From: an uncultured candidate division Zixibacteria bacterium
GTDB taxonomy: Bacteria > Zixibacteria > MSB-5A5 > GN15 > FEB-12
Direction: 5' to 3'
Assembly (NCBI GenBank): GCA_963806185.1
Contig: CAWDXE010000001.1
Span: forward strand, 64,001 to 128,000
Length of the DNA stretch: 64,000 nt
The notes under the pieces are model-generated. The model saw only the letters and a program-made list of their open reading frames with translations, was not told where the DNA came from and made no database searches. Each line of letters begins with the position of its first letter. Position 1 is the first letter of the stretch. A program made the position numbers and the translations under genes. Below are positions 42,108 through 53,878 of this stretch, piece by piece.

Positions 42108-44288
42108 TCACGTACGTTGTGTTGCCACCGCTTCGTCCGCACTCGCTTTGCTCAAAACCTCACTCTGTTCTCCGGCAAAAACCGTAAACCTGAGCACCGT
42201 GGGTTCCCGACGTACCGGCAGATGGAGTCGGTGAACAATCGTCGTCCCCTGGTATACTTTCTCGAATCCTCCCTCCGAAAGCGACACCGTGAAGATCGGT
42301 AGATGCCAGATGTCCGCCGCGTCCTGCGACCGCACCGCCACCGCCAGTTGTCGCCATTCGTCGACCAGCGCAATCGCTCTGGCGTTGGAGAATGCTCCCT
42401 CCGAATCCAGGAAGCTGTTCTCGCTCCGGCGATTATCAATCACGATGTACCGGTCGGGCGCATGGCCGGCCTGGAAATTGAAGTTATTCTCCACGGCGAA
42501 ATTGATCCACTGCTCCTGATCTGACCGGCTGCTCAACTCGTAGGTCACTTTCAACACATTTCCGCCCGAAACGTCAAATGTCTTCCGAATTCTCAGCGGG
42601 AACTCGCTGTTTGGCTGACGCACCCACCCGTCGCGAACCACCGTCGCCCGGCCTTCACCCATGAATGGCTCGAGTTGATATGGTTCGAGAATAAAATCAC
42701 CGTCTTCGCCATACTTCCCTGACGCGAACGACTCGAAAGACACATCACGCGCGAACACGTGATCGATAAAACACCGCTTCAAATACCAATCGTCGACCAG
42801 GAACTTCTGCAGTCCCGGCTCCTTGGTAAGAACCAAGTCGTGAATTGACGCTGTGCCACTCTCCTGATCATCGGCCGTCACCGCTTTGTCGAGTTTCAGA
42901 TGGTACCCTTCCTTGCGGCGCGTCAACGTATCGATCAACTCGAAGTTGTGTTCAAGCAATCCCAGATTGAGCAGTGTTCCACCCCGGCTCGGCTTAATAG
43001 CCGCAGAAAGCGAATCCGTCACGAGCAGTACTTCGTCAAATCCATCAGCGTCGTAATCCACTGCCGCTCGCGTGATTCTGCCCTTATCCGTGAGTTGGTG
43101 CAGCTTTGCCTCGGCCGCGATCATCGCGCCGTAAACTGCCTGGCGAAGGTGGGGCAGATACAACCCGCCGAAGACGCCGTGCCAGTAGGGGCAATTCACC
43201 TGTGATGCATACAGACGATCGGTAATCTCTGCGGTCTCCTGAATTCGCCGCGGATCGCCCTGCTGATAGGCTGCCAGATTCGAAGACACATACAGCATCT
43301 TCTTATGCATCAGGTTCGCCTCTTCATACTTGGTCAGAAAGCCTCGCCAGTGGCCGCCCCGGACAAACCGCCCGTATCGGTCCCAACTGGCATGCTGCTT
43401 CATGAACTGTTCCAGCCCTTCATATTCGACAAAGGCCTTCGCCGGCAGCGACCAGTGCAGCATCTCTTCGTATGACGCCGACGGCAAATAGACCCGCCCG
43501 GCTGCCGGACGTCGGGACGCCTCTCCCAGCGGGATGATATCCAGCCATGCCTCAGCTTCGCTCAAGGCCGCAAAGAAATCCGCCAACCAACTGTCGACAT
43601 AACAATGCTTGTGCGTGTTCGGCCAGACGCCAAACTTCTCGCCGTCGTCCGCATACACGGCCAGCGCCTGCGGATTGTACTCCGCCTGCCGGCGCAATTC
43701 GAGCATCGCCTCATCAACCGTCCCGAATGGAATCAGGTACCGCAGTTGTTTCTGGATCGGCAACAGCGTGACCGTCGCCCCTTCGTCTTCGGTGATAAAC
43801 GGTCCCGTAAGCTGAATATGCTCCAGCCCGGCATAGAGAAAGTGCGTGTCATCAACGGGGAGAAACGTCACCCCGGCTTCCGCCAGTATCTTGGGCAGAT
43901 GCGGCTCCCATACTCGTTCCGTAAGCCAGGCGCCCGTGGCCTCAGTGCCGAAATGTTTTCTGAGATACTCAGTCAGCATGGCGATCTGACCTTTTACATC
44001 CCGGGCCGGAATGGAGGTCAGAATCGGTTCGTAGAATCCGCCGGTCAATAAATCGATCTGACCCAGGTCGAGCATCGATTTCACCAGCGTGAAGTACTCC
44101 GGATGGTGCCGCTCCTGCCAATCCCACAGGATACCCGACTGATGGAGCGATAGCCGTACGCGCGGATATTGCTTCAGAACATCGAGAAACGGAGCGTAGG
44201 CATCCTGGTGCGCCTGCTCGAACACCGATTCGAAATTGCCCACCGGCTGGTGGTTGTGTATGCCGAGCGCCAGGGTGAATTTTGACAT
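42108..44288 (-). CDS. GH57 alpha-amylase/4-alpha-glucanotransferase
   Basis: HNHQPVGN, GGFYEPIL, WLTERVWEP, DDGEKFG, YWHGVFGGLYLPHLR, SEGGFEKVYQG. Confidence 0.9.
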   Translation of the reverse strand: MSKFTLALGIHNHQPVGNFESVFEQAHQDAYAPFLDVLKQYPRVRLSLHQSGILWDWQERHHPEYFTLVKSMLDLGQIDLLTGGFYEPILTSIPARDVKGQIAMLTEYLRKHFGTEATGAWLTERVWEPHLPKILAEAGVTFLPVDDTHFLYAGLEHIQLTGPFITEDEGATVTLLPIQKQLRYLIPFGTVDEAMLELRRQAEYNPQALAVYADDGEKFGVWPNTHKHCYVDSWLADFFAALSEAEAWLDIIPLGEASRRPAAGRVYLPSASYEEMLHWSLPAKAFVEYEGLEQFMKQHASWDRYGRFVRGGHWRGFLTKYEEANLMHKKMLYVSSNLAAYQQGDPRRIQETAEITDRLYASQVNCPYWHGVFGGLYLPHLRQAVYGAMIAAEAKLHQLTDKGRITRAAVDYDADGFDEVLLVTDSLSAAIKPSRGGTLLNLGLLEHNFELIDTLTRRKEGYHLKLDKAVTADDQESGTASIHDLVLTKEPGLQKFLVDDWYLKRCFIDHVFARDVSFESFASGKYGEDGDFILEPYQLEPFMGEGRATVVRDGWVRQPNSEFPLRIRKTFDVSGGNVLKVTYELSSRSDQEQWINFAVENNFNFQAGHAPDRYIVIDNRRSENSFLDSEGAFSNARAIALVDEWRQLAVAVRSQDAADIWHLPIFTVSLSEGGFEKVYQGTTIVHRLHLPVRREPTVLRFTVFAGEQSEVLSKASADEAVATQRT

Positions 44289-46423: not shown

Positions 46424-49426
<3,003 letters not shown>

Positions 49427-49970: not shown

Positions 49971-50300
49971 TCACCCCTTGAACAGAAGGACAAGCGTGCA
50001 AATAGTCACTGTTACCGGAAGCAGTGTCGTGAACGGCACCGGGAAGAGCAGTGAACCGACAAAGGCCAGCGCCACCGACGGCACCACCAGGTACTTCAGC
50101 GTCGCCAGCGCCATCTTCACCAGCGCAATGAGCAGCATCACGACCAGTCCGGCCGCCGCCACGTAGGTCGCATACAGGCCGTTCTGCCCGAACGTCGCAT
50201 AGATCCAGTCATGTATCTGGGCGACCGGCGCCGACAACGACGCCGCTCCGGCCCACATCTGGTCCAGCCACGCGGCTAAAGTGTTTAGTATCTCGGTCAT
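49971..50300 (-). CDS. Hypothetical small membrane protein
   Basis: 109 aa with about three hydrophobic helices; 9 nt downstream of the preceding gene. Confidence 0.75.
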   Translation of the reverse strand: MTEILNTLAAWLDQMWAGAASLSAPVAQIHDWIYATFGQNGLYATYVAAAGLVVMLLIALVKMALATLKYLVVPSVALAFVGSLLFPVPFTTLLPVTVTICTLVLLFKG

Positions 50301-50309
50301 ACTTGACGG

Positions 50310-50528
50310 CTACTCTTCTTCGAGTGGTTCGATGGTGAGCGACGACTCGCCCACGCGGCTCAGGCCCACCATGCGTTTGGTCAGGAAGTTCTGCGTCGTG
50401 ATCCACTTGTGGGAGACATCCATGATCTCAGTCTGCTCGACATCCGATACCCAGTCGAGAATCACCTGATCAATGGACTTGTCCTCTACGATCACGTTAT
50501 CCATGGTCAGCGTAAACTTCACTTTCAT
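50310..50528 (-). CDS. Hypothetical acidic 72-aa protein
   Basis: ORF with typical codon usage, first of three tightly spaced co-oriented genes. Confidence 0.75.
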   Translation of the reverse strand: MKVKFTLTMDNVIVEDKSIDQVILDWVSDVEQTEIMDVSHKWITTQNFLTKRMVGLSRVGESSLTIEPLEEE

Positions 50529-50574
50529 GGCGACCTATCCCTTATGACAGTTCCGTTCGTCTCACCACGGAAAG

Positions 50575-50590
50575 TGCAAGGGGAGTGCCC
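50575..50590 (-). promoter_or_regulatory. Sigma-54 (-24/-12) promoter
   Basis: GGGCAC-TCCCC-TTGCA versus consensus TGGCAC-N5-TTGCA, 46 nt upstream of the ATG at 50528. Confidence 0.68.
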
Positions 50591-50738
50591 ACCCGGGGCT
50601 ATGCCCCCGAGGCACCATCAATTCAATTGTGACACAATGAGTTACGCTGGAAAATGTGCAGGATATTGACAGCTCGGAAAATCCTTCCCGGGCCTCTTCC
50701 GCAGGTAGATGTGGGGGCTCCCCCATTCCCTATGGCAT

Positions 50739-50773
50739 AACAAAAAGCCCGGCGAGAACTTGTCCCGCCGGGC
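50739..50773 (-). terminator. Intrinsic terminator closing the 51.17-kb transcript
   Basis: GCCCGGCG.../...CGCCGGGC followed by TTTTTGTT on the minus strand. Confidence 0.78.
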
Positions 50774-51172
50774 CAGTCGTATTTGCAGAATTGGTATCGA
50801 GCGATTTCTCGCTCCAGCCGTCACTTTGCTTTCGGTCGCCGGCAACTCCTGTAGCCGGACCCATTTTAGGTCCGGTCGCCCAACCCTCAACGCTGAGCAT
50901 GCAGTACGAAAAACAACCGAAATTGCGCCACGGCCAGGCGCCTCAGAATTACGCCTCCATCGTGTCACCCACGTTCCCGGCCGTCATCCTTCCCTGGCAG
51001 CCGTTGGGGCAACGTTCTTCCATACGTTTTCCTCCTCTGACAGTTGTTGCACGCCACGTACGGCATGAGGCGCATCAGAGTGGGGACATCTATAACTGTC
51101 GTCCGTGGTGATTGACGCCGAAGCTTGTGAGGGGCGAACCCTTCTGGCGTCGCGATTCATCTTATTTCATTC
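50740..51172 (-). ncRNA. Candidate ~430-nt structured RNA (family not recognised)
   Basis: Bounded by a consensus promoter and a terminator; many hairpins including UUCG and GAAA tetraloops; no long credible ORF. Confidence 0.5.
50949..51023 (-). CDS. Candidate 24-aa peptide MEERCPNGCQGRMTAGNVGDTMEA
   Basis: AGGAGG Shine-Dalgarno 7 nt before the ATG; below the ORF-track length cutoff. Confidence 0.45.
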   Translation of the reverse strand: MEERCPNGCQGRMTAGNVGDTMEA

Positions 51173-51178
51173 ATCTAC

Positions 51179-51207
51179 AGGATACGCGATCGCGGGTCGT
51201 CTGTCAA
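51179..51207 (-). promoter_or_regulatory. Sigma-70 promoter
   Basis: TTGACA-17 nt-TATCCT on the minus strand. Confidence 0.72.
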
Positions 51208-51249
51208 GGGGAAAATGGACTTCTCCACGCAGGGTTTGCTGTGTGACGG

Positions 51250-53878
51250 CTAGAAGGCAAACCCGACCGAACAATACCAACGGTCGAAATTGTCCTCCGT
51301 CGCCCCATACCCTATCTCCATCGGCCCGATCGGACTGCTGTACGCGACCGACCCGCCCCACCCCTGGCGCAGTCGCTTCAGGCGAATCTGCGCACTGCTC
51401 TCCCACACGTCGCCCAGGTCCCACTTGGCCAGCAGATACAGTCGGTTCACGAGAGTCACGCGAAATTCCTGATTGAAAACGAAGACCTTGTCGCCTACCC
51501 ATTGATTGGACCGGTATCCGGTAAACGATCCCAGCCCGCCTATGTAGAATCGTTCCGACGGCGGCAGGCCGCGCCGCGACAAACCAATCGAAATCTTGGG
51601 ATGATAATTCAGCCGCTTGCCCAGCGCGAAATACCCCTCCAACGACGAGAAGAAGCGGGTATACTCTACGTCACCGCCGAGATACTTTGCCCGCAAACCG
51701 AAGGTCGAGCAGACTCCGCTTTCCGCTATTCGGAAACGGTACCCGATCGAGGTTTTCCACCAGCGATTCAAACGTAAGCGTCCGCAGATTGAACGAGCCG
51801 AATTCCCCCACCTGGTCGCCGTCCAGGTTGATCTTGTCAAATTGCAGCCCAACCGTCACCGCCCCCAGGCGGTGGATCTGCTGCCCAATCCTCAGGTAGG
51901 CACCGGTTTCTCTCTCTTCGCGTATGCCGGTCGGTTCGCCCTTCGGCGTAAACGTCGTCCGGTCCAACATCGCATGGTATAGCCGCAACTGCGCCGTCAG
52001 GTATGTCTTGAATATTCGATCGGCTTTCAGTTCCGCGAAGTAGTGCTGGCGATCGTCGCTGTACCGCGCGTGCAGCAAATACTCCATACCGATACCCGCC
52101 ACATTGTCGTCGAGGATTTCGATGAATTCCTCAGATTGATAGGTATCGTCCCAGTGCCAGCCCACCCGAGCCTGCGTGTACTTGCGTTCCCGTACACCGA
52201 TATCGACAATCGCCCCACTGTCATGCGGCAATAAGCTCACCGTCACACGATCAAAGAGATCCGTTCCGTACAGGTCGTTGAGACCTCGATTGGCCTGCAA
52301 AGTCGAATACGGCGCTCCCGCCTTAAGCGGAAAATAGGATCGAACCAGCCAATCCCGGCTCCGCTGATTAAACGAAACATCGATCCGCCGGACAATCGCT
52401 TCATCCAAATCGACGGTCACCACCTGGTGATCAAAATCGATGCTCGTCGCGCGAATATCCGCGAGATCGTAGTTCTCGACCTGGTAGAGATTGACGATCC
52501 GGTCAAGACGGCGCCGTAACGCCTCCGGCGTGACAATTGAATCGTGTCCCTGCACTTGCGCCATCAGGGTCGAATCATCAAATACCGTATTCCCATTCAC
52601 CACCCAGCGCAACGTGCGATCGTCAAGATTGGCCCGCGGCGTGAGCGTCAACACAACCGCCTGCACCGACTTCGTCGCGGAGACGGGATATATAGTGTCC
52701 GGAACGATTCCCGCGTCCAACTGAAACAGGTTGTTGTCCCGGCACAGTTGTTGCAGCGCTTCGGTCAGCGCCCTTCGGCCAAACTTCCGGCCGGAGAGCG
52801 CGCTTTGTGCCGACGAAGTGAAGCGATCGTCGTCACCGACCACCGAGACCCGTTGGATTGCCATTTCGGTCGTATCCAGTTGACGGCGAATCATCAGTTT
52901 GAGGCTGTCCATGACCGCCACCGCCGCGGCATACCCCCTATCGATAATCGAGTCGCGCTCCGCGAAGTCGCCCGACATGATCGAACCAAGCGTCGGCTGA
53001 ATCACAAAATCGGCGTGCGAAAGCTGGGTCATCAGTTTGTCGACCGTCATAATGGTCGTCACCTGATCCGCTAGGTCGACCGGCGAAATGATCTCGTCGC
53101 GCGTTCGCAGAGCGCTGGCACAATTGACGGCCAGCACGAATTTGACTGAATCTGTCATGGCGCGGACAATGTCCACCGGAACCGGCACCAGCATCCCGCC
53201 ATCCATGAGCCACCGGTCCTCCCGATCCACCCCCGTGAATGCCAGAGGGAAAGCCATCGTGGCGCGCAACGCGTCCGCCAGCGATCCGTCGGACAGGACC
53301 ACCTCTTCGCCCGACACGATGTCCGTACAGACAGTTTTGAAGGGAATGGTAAATCGCGAGAAATCGCCGCCGGCACGATACGTCGCCTTGTTGGTGAGCG
53401 AGGTGAGCAGCGAGGCCAGTTCCTGGCCCGAGGTCAGCGCGTGCGGAATCTGAGGCCGAAATCCGTCAAAGCGCATGGAGAGCAGATGGCGGTCCCGGTC
53501 GCGCCGCCGCGTGAGCAGCATCGATCGGCGCGATGGCTCATTTCGGAACAGCGTTGAATAATCTATCTCGCGTACGATCTGTTTGATGGCGTCAGCGCGA
53601 TACCCACACGCGTACAAGCCACCGACAATGCCGCCGATCGACGTGCCCGCCACGGCAGCGACGGAAATATTGTTCTCCTCCAGCGCCTTCAACACCCCAA
53701 TGGCCGCCAGCCCACGAGCGCCGCCACCGGATAGAGCCAGCGCGACAGGTATCGATTGCTCGGTCCCGTGAGGGTCAAGACCATCCACCCCACCAATGCG
53801 TATCGACTCTGCGGATGCGGTAACTGCCAGCGCGATTACTACTGTCGCGATCAGGGGAATTTTAGCTTGTGGTCTCAC
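51250..53878 (-). CDS. Patatin-like phospholipase with POTRA and Omp85 beta-barrel (PlpD/type Vd-like); one frameshift at ~51687
   Basis: Signal peptide, LSGGGARG, GTSIG, DGG; barrel strands with FYIGG...GY and SPIGP, C-terminal F; an extra A in GGCAAAGTAT splits the ORF. Confidence 0.88.

Follow-up and report, generated by a model that had tools for sequence, protein, structure and literature searches.

The apparently empty intergenic gap at 50739–51207 of the window (the whole 64,000-nt stretch of an uncultured Zixibacteria genome that was analysed) raises the question of whether it gives rise to an RNA and, if so, what that RNA does. A sequence-only reading had placed a highly structured transcript of about 430 nt there and had considered a lineage-specific non-coding RNA, a dual-function RNA and a loose likeness to 6S RNA. 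Comparison with related genomes makes it likely that the gap gives a real regulatory RNA of about 430 bases whose position is conserved across one order of uncultured Zixibacteria, and the best reading is of a new sRNA family, without an Rfam entry, of the 5′-end-pairing kind already known from RoxS and FasX.

The predicted RNA in the window and its homologues

The predicted RNA (about 434 nt, 50739–51172, on the minus strand, as are all window features below unless stated) is delimited by a sigma70-type promoter, TTGACA-17-TATCCT (51179–51207; 10/12 matches), and a strong intrinsic terminator (50739–50774, stem 50774–50746), both present where the sequence-only reading had put them. Its ends are inferred from these two elements, and RNA contigs lie over 50776–51159. 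Taken alone, such sites are not above chance, with 2 promoter-like sites against 1.3 in shuffles and 4 terminators against 2.4. The promoter, however, recurs as TTGAC..TAnnnT at the equivalent site in relatives; the terminator stem carries both-sided changes in homologues.

All helix arms named earlier have correct coordinates, and five of the six helices have good support. The CUCUGA/UCAGAG helix (51035–51080; pair probabilities 0.96–0.99) puts UCCCCAC beside a Shine–Dalgarno sequence; this helix, the TTTCGGTTG/CGACCGAAA helix, the CCGGACC/GGTCCGG hairpin (50855–50875) and the GAGCGA-GAAA-TCGCTC hairpin (50799–50814) all fall within 0.89–1.0. The CTGGCCGT/ACGGCTGG extension, whose inner six pairs have probabilities of 0.9–1.0, is predicted by folding to combine with TTTCGGTTG/CGACCGAAA into a 3′ rod (50814–50937) that closes an apical multi-branch. 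The exception is GACGCC/GGCGTC (51151–51114), at a probability of only 0.35, which cannot enclose both of the UUCG hairpins ascribed to it because the second (51124–51117) uses 51118–51117 of its 3′ arm. The fold of the RNA as a whole exceeds that of shuffled sequences to a modest degree, with a z of −2.21 and 2 of 100 shuffles folding equally well. The picture of an empty gap with no normal gene also needs amending, as it overlooked translation signals: a conserved Shine–Dalgarno GGAGG (51035–51031) and AUG (51023), together spanning 51021–51035, that open a mini-ORF of 24 codons (50949–51023). Close relatives represented by RNA contigs keep both signals, with changes confined to the spacer at 51028–51029. 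A CCUCAC motif (51127–51132), identified from family-wide motif counts, marks the C-rich 5′ leader, and a conserved tail, GCAAAUACGA in this copy, lies at 50777–50786.

Rfam has no match in the window, at gathering level or below, and at the E-value level the window and 20 related loci gave chance hits only; neither the RoxS/RsaE nor the FasX family matched in the window or in the 20 related loci. Models of tmRNA, RNase P RNA and SRP RNA, none of which had been recognised by eye in the gap, have no match in the window, and each is found elsewhere in the same genome. With regard to expression, 24 runs are listed for 50300–51300, of which seven RNA runs (six studies) and one DNA run were examined. 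All seven RNA runs, selected by matching the window stretch, hold a contig of about 96–99% identity inside 50776–51159; the contigs are unstranded and carry neither ends nor level. The single DNA run examined has no cover of the stretch, and the flanks have no close-identity RNA contig cover in the runs examined, which by itself carries no weight. Such contigs hint, if weakly, at an RNA that is discrete and abundant.

BLASTN of the window RNA against 60 relatives found no homologue, the one 35-nt match being a chance match within a coding region. Homologues were sought by synteny, using the regions upstream of a conserved 72-aa gene (50310–50528; present in 58/61 relatives and 147/151 phylum genomes) from all 58 orthologous loci. 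A promoter-to-terminator unit of 330–554 nt was delimited in 42 of these, 34 by script and 8 by hand; two loci are cut by contig ends. A motif scan and inspection by eye of the remaining 16 showed, among the matches listed, one locus of family f1 without a unit, a longer unit with a two-codon ORF in 4/5 loci of f2, a promoter and CCUCAC but no AUG in 4/10 loci of f3, and about five f3 loci in which another gene occupies the unit's place. No unit was seen upstream of the 72-aa gene in any of 20 loci from other orders, and when metagenomes were scanned by pattern for close relatives, all 12 matches lacked it. With no Rfam match and with synteny in 42/58 loci of one order against 0/20 elsewhere, the proposal of an unannotated, lineage-specific non-coding RNA is supported.

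The 72-aa gene is preceded by a sigma54-type −24/−12 site, GGCAC-n5-TTGC (50576–50589), which fits the consensus of such promoters; the motif occurs about 60 nt ahead of the gene in most orthologous loci. A palindrome, TGGGG..CCCCA (50712–50725), which lies outside the RNA and would likely be the enhancer site of this promoter, and an IHF-like site also lie 3′ of the unit, and all three are assigned to the 72-aa gene; the palindrome resembles one at a flagellin-like gene on contig C3. The encoded protein resembles nothing of note in Pfam, Atlas, PDB sequences or known folds (best Z 4.9), which is no proof of a new fold, and its model is confidently alpha/beta (pLDDT 85.6). Several features of the surroundings may be recorded here. 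An insertion of about 480 nt with short repeats, between two near-identical terminator copies, displaces the RNA from the 72-aa gene in one genome (G009; L043:600–1000). In the window, a patatin-POTRA ORF and an Omp85 ORF (51250–53878) overlap out of frame at 51671–51852 and have the appearance of a single PlpD-type gene split by a frameshift or an error in sequencing, and secA (46424–49426, plus strand) adjoins minus-strand genes that by eye resemble an RsgA-type GTPase and an MlaD-type gene (42108–44288 to 46424).

Conserved parts of the family

The motif CCTCAC occurs in the leader of 24/34 units, against 4.0 expected, and CCTCA[CT] in 33/41 leaders. Three candidate roles were considered. 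A specific anti-Shine–Dalgarno function of the leader was rejected, the Shine–Dalgarno sequence being paired in 34/41 units and in 33.6 with shuffled leaders; a promoter followed by GTGAGG, as a target for CCUCAC would require, is only modestly above control; and a gene for a 120-aa protein, with a GUGAGG Shine–Dalgarno sequence, is a lead only, since several f4 orthologues change that sequence with no matching change in the motif.

The mini-ORF runs from 1 to 24 codons across the 42 units, uses all three stops and encodes no shared peptide. In 24/42 units it has three codons or fewer, where 5.3 such units were expected and the two other frames give 5 and 3; the units were chosen for having a Shine–Dalgarno sequence and AUG, a choice that does not bias the stop position. 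Further loci beyond the 42 include a few longer ORFs, of 41 to 50 or more codons. An immediate stop after the AUG thus appears, from sequence comparison, to be favoured by selection, and a literature search for start-stop ORFs in sRNAs found nothing. The earlier suggestion of a dual-function RNA survives only with another meaning, since conservation extends to the start site and not to the peptide. RNAIII of S. aureus and other dual-function sRNAs are about 0.5 kb long and have many hairpins, an internal Shine–Dalgarno sequence with an ORF, and a distinct 3′ domain that carries the pairing loops. The Zixibacteria RNA shares its size, hairpins, internal Shine–Dalgarno sequence with ORF and separate 3′ pairing domain with RNAIII, but it lacks the conserved peptide of the RNAIII and SgrS type (its ORF being 1–24 codons), and its target is an mRNA 5′ end instead of a Shine–Dalgarno sequence.

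The 3′ domain is structured (median z −2.87; z below −2 in 31/42 units) and, in an alignment of 19 chosen members, 20/24 pairs show a both-sided change, which 0/500 shuffles reach; 8 of these 20 are terminator pairs. Covarying structure of the kind that the sequence-only reading had looked to relatives for is therefore present in these members. In the terminator, 92.9% of cells are paired across the 19 homologues, with both-sided changes in 8/9 pairs, and the stem closing the loop described next is paired in only 47% of cells. That loop, typically a hairpin loop with the consensus CUCAYCURUCAUCC, is termed the seed below and is found in a subset of members. The tail, CCGYAAUACGA across the family, is within two mismatches in 31/42 units and more diverged in the window copy; a target for it was sought in five genomes and rejected, its complement being no commoner than control.

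Complementarity to the 5′ end of a partner mRNA

The complement of the 3′-domain loop was searched for in five genomes without a prior target and lay, in four of them, at +1 of one gene's promoter, TTGACA-17-TATATT, ahead of the same gene each time. This promoter followed by GGATGAY occurs in 44/61 genomes, against 7 control hits, the gene not being the orthologue in some of the 44. The partner transcript (in the window genome at C6:198962–199003, minus strand) has a leader of about 290–350 nt and encodes a protein of about 360–400 aa that starts like a signal peptide and matches no Pfam family. The C-terminal 80 or so residues of this protein, which we take to be dockerin-like, recur in many paralogues. 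The next gene in the window genome has a secretion-sorting tail, and by sequence the partner operon likely encodes secreted proteins.

Under a criterion of contiguous pairing over at least 9 bp anchored at partner nt 1–2, with the partner +1 predicted from the promoter, a 3′-domain segment is complementary to partner nt 1–9 to 1–17 (usually GGAUGAUAGGUG) in 25 of the 52 genomes with both parts. The duplex is present in 17/32 first pairs, in 8/9 later pairs, a rate biased by the choice of these nine genomes via a seed-containing model or a known loop, and in 0/11 genomes from f2, f3, three of f4 and two of f1; the seed is correspondingly absent in 27/52 (15/32, 1/9 and 11/11), and kin genomes within these counts are not independent. 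In 16/17 seed-bearing units the seed ends 68–98 nt ahead of the terminator. Across 24 pairs in the same register, from which one genome with a displaced register (G157) was left out, 238/240 cells are paired over nt 1–10, and the cognate score of 294.5 exceeds the permuted score of 269.6, with 0/20,000 permutations reaching it; cognate pairs also exceed permuted ones when one genome per genus is kept (20 pairs). At positions 4, 6, 8, 9, 11, 13 and 14 both sides of the duplex have changed, in different genera, and the one-sided changes are G–U wobbles, which is the pattern of RNA–RNA pairing. Where the partner starts with GGACG, the loop ends in UCGUCC or UGUCC. In one genome (G009) the partner starts with GGACGUUAGG and the loop is altered at both positions, giving 15 bp, and another (G152) has 14 Watson–Crick pairs including GGUGGC/GCCACC. 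Predicted pairing between RNA and target is thus well supported by co-variation in the seed-bearing members. The seed has a scattered distribution on a two-protein tree of 31 genomes, many of whose nodes are weak, and occurs in all five f4 members of the tree, so it is likely to be ancestral and to have been lost repeatedly. A separate observation concerns one genome (G018; L105), where four near-identical promoters with GGGATGAC starts stand on different contigs, possibly as a repeated mobile element.

The window copy belongs to the seedless members. It retains the promoter, CCUCAC, Shine–Dalgarno sequence and AUG, rod, diverged tail and terminator, and its CCGGACC/GGTCCGG hairpin, where relatives have the seed loop, carries a 7-nt loop without the seed that differs among close relatives in the RNA contigs. 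No significant complementarity links the window RNA to its own partner (duplex p=0.65), a 12-bp helix between the RNA and the partner leader being rejected as chance-level (69/150 shuffles reach it). The apical model R1, which matches 18/151 phylum genomes, 17 of them in its own family, gives the window copy only 3.1 bits and no match. A substitute seed elsewhere in the genome was also sought; of 10 intergenic candidates, the four inspected were unconvincing. The partner in the window genome keeps its canonical 5′ end, as it does in most other seedless genomes, so this end would be conserved for another reason too. The seed has likely been lost in the window lineage, where the working parts would now be the leader, the mini-ORF, several ANGGA sites and the tail, and support for the target mechanism discussed below consequently comes from the family and not from the window copy. 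Elsewhere in the window genome, the intergenic region at C6:158400–159500 contains several direct repeats of about 110 nt and palindromes.

Proposed function and competing readings

By analogy with RoxS and yflS, we consider it somewhat probable that the RNA acts in trans, its loop pairing with the first nucleotides of the partner and shielding them from 5′-end-dependent decay. Such protection of the 5′ end has been shown for RoxS and yflS and is proposed for FasX and ska (PMC5419742). The likeness lies in pairing in trans, via a pyrimidine-rich segment, with the nucleotides at the very start of a primary transcript (PMC5419742). C-rich motifs elsewhere in the RNA are a further likeness, and conserved complementarity of this kind was found in the 25 seed-bearing genomes, not in the window copy. 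The Zixibacteria RNA differs in having no sequence or Rfam relation to RoxS or FasX, in its length of 330–554 nt and internal start-stop ORF, in a seed of 9–17 bp placed in a 3′-domain loop, and in that its effect on the target is predicted. The seed loop and the partner 5′ end would pair in the cell, and the duplex would hide the single-stranded end from decay as RoxS does for yflS, the direction and sign of regulation being taken from the RoxS/FasX precedent. As further parts of this reading, ribosome loading on the start-stop ORF would shield the RNA and leave the 3′ domain folded, and CsrA bound at the ANGGA hairpin described below and at ANGGA over the Shine–Dalgarno sequence would tie the level or activity of the RNA to the CsrA–FliW flagellar switch. 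The host also differs: RNase E/G is present in the window genome, and no RNase J, which is what RoxS blocks, scored over the cut-off. Hfq was not found in this genome, which is 82% complete; like the lack of an RNase J match, this counts against the reading. The RNase E/G match (G000:C7:113821–114631) is split between two open frames, which may mean a frameshift.

A second reading takes CsrA sequestration to be the main job of the RNA, which would be an abundant, mRNA-like decoy whose flagellin-like ANGGA sites add to FliW control, with the seed secondary. The CsrA motif is described as ANGGA in hairpin loops (PMC4894983). CsrA and FliW are each encoded in 59/61 genomes, in the flagellar cluster, and the host CsrA has an extended C-terminus. 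A hairpin with an ANGGA loop, in which N is G, U, C or A, occurs in 22/42 units, ANGGA lies at the Shine–Dalgarno sequence in 36/42, and sites also reach the start codon; CANGGA (50 against 18.5 expected) and CANGGANG (26 against 4.8) are enriched in 34 units. The ANGGAAA loop of the RNA recurs ahead of the flagellin start and of the gene for the 120-aa basic protein (L163:2559–2921; G000:C7:282058–282417), which has no Pfam match, is found in 58/61 genomes and has a CAC-ANGGAAA-GUG hairpin with the Shine–Dalgarno sequence AGUGAGG at its start; this gene is likely, on these motifs, to be a CsrA target. A decoy would explain the persistence of seedless copies, and the window copy has five ANGGA sites. 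Against it, 20/42 units, including the window copy, lack the hairpin, the median is 3.5 ANGGA per RNA, ANGGA at the Shine–Dalgarno sequence is partly a by-product of GGAGG, and GGA in total is not enriched in the 34 units (327 against 304 ± 13), so it does not qualify as a CsrB-type array of sites. Antagonists of the CsrB/RsmZ type resemble it in exposing ANGGA in a hairpin loop and in having CsrA in the host (PMC7366521, PMC4894983); they have many such hairpins, whereas the Zixibacteria RNA has one conserved hairpin, in about half of its members, and its host also has FliW. Antagonism by FliW and by sRNAs is reported to be mutually exclusive so far (PMC7366521). The RNA may, from its motifs, be a CsrA target or minor decoy, and sequestration as its main job is possible but unlikely.

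A third reading keeps the pairing but reverses it or makes it negative: the partner leader, or a short RNA derived from it, would sponge or destabilise the RNA, or the RNA would alter folding or termination of the nascent leader or displace CsrA from the 5′ GGA. Co-variation gives no direction, and the 5′ GGA is kept in both the GGAUG and GGACG variants. The partner leader has conserved motifs of its own, namely AGUACUUC, a hairpin with a GUGGGGG loop, CAGGUUAC and CUUGGCUAAGGG (G000:C6:198962, minus strand; L098, L125), and is a candidate for a new cis-regulatory RNA. In nine partner loci, however, Rfam found no element and only chance hits at the E-value level, and blocking partner nt 1–14 changed predicted access to the Shine–Dalgarno sequence in 0/30 leaders, so no translational switch is predicted. 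A duplex that includes the very first nucleotide agrees with the precedent of end protection (PMC5419742), and we regard a reversed or negative role as improbable.

A cis-acting attenuator, in which ribosome loading on the mini-ORF would set terminator read-through into the 72-aa gene, could draw on the conserved start site and on the fixed position of the unit, about 210 nt upstream of that gene. Yet the 72-aa gene has its own sigma54-type promoter and stands without a unit upstream in all 20 loci of other orders, the mini-ORF stops about 170–300 nt ahead of the terminator and has no sensing codons, and the co-variation in trans would go unexplained, all of which makes attenuation very improbable. 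The 6S-like rod suggested by the sequence-only reading finds no support in the comparison: among the members conserved best, it leads into a hairpin multi-branch, the main loop of which matches the 5′ end of one particular mRNA by complementarity. As a divergent 6S RNA, it would bind sigma70 RNA polymerase and offer the loop as template for a short product RNA. A long rod, apparent abundance and a sigma70 promoter are common to both, and the slot seems open, since RF00013 matches 0/61 genomes of the order at E≤1, a weak absence given a control detected in only 5/14 known genomes; at E≤10 it has no match in 50500–51300. However, where 6S RNA forms one rod of about 190 nt interrupted by a central bubble, the units are 330–554 nt long, two to three times the 187-position model, with a rod ending in several hairpins and a Shine–Dalgarno–AUG module, and the G–U-tolerant variation of the loop, which follows one mRNA, is that of RNA–RNA pairing and not of templating; a 6S identity is hardly credible. 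Least credible of all is an ordinary mRNA for a small protein (ORFs of 24, 36 or 58 aa are present in the gap, and the Shine–Dalgarno sequence and AUG are strong), as ORF length and sequence are not conserved, most units stop within three codons and no Pfam match is credible.

The preferred reading, 5′-end pairing in trans, may be one part of a larger design. We put forward, tentatively and as a rather doubtful extension, a modular "mRNA-mimic" regulator, an RNA of about 450 nt that would carry ribosomes on its start-stop ORF, bind CsrA as flagellin mRNA does and, by base-pairing, cap the 5′ end of the mRNA of the main surface-protein operon. A search by phylum name found no literature on Zixibacteria regulatory RNAs, subscription papers and bioRxiv supplements lying outside its scope; this RNA could already be present in one of the large catalogues of motifs.

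Zixibacteria are uncultured, and an sRNA–target pair has here been read from genomes alone, through compensatory changes between two unlinked loci, with the caveat that the window's own copy has lost the seed. The pair allows 5′-end pairing to be tested directly in a host that has RNase E/G and in which Hfq was not found, the cases already tested being from hosts with RNase J, and a selected start-stop ORF and a CsrA-type hairpin are unusual companions in one RNA. If the mRNA-mimic model were true, it would provide a CsrA-binding sRNA in a FliW-using bacterium, two modes thought to be mutually exclusive, and would mean that translation capacity and the CsrA–FliW flagellar switch are coupled to the output of envelope genes.
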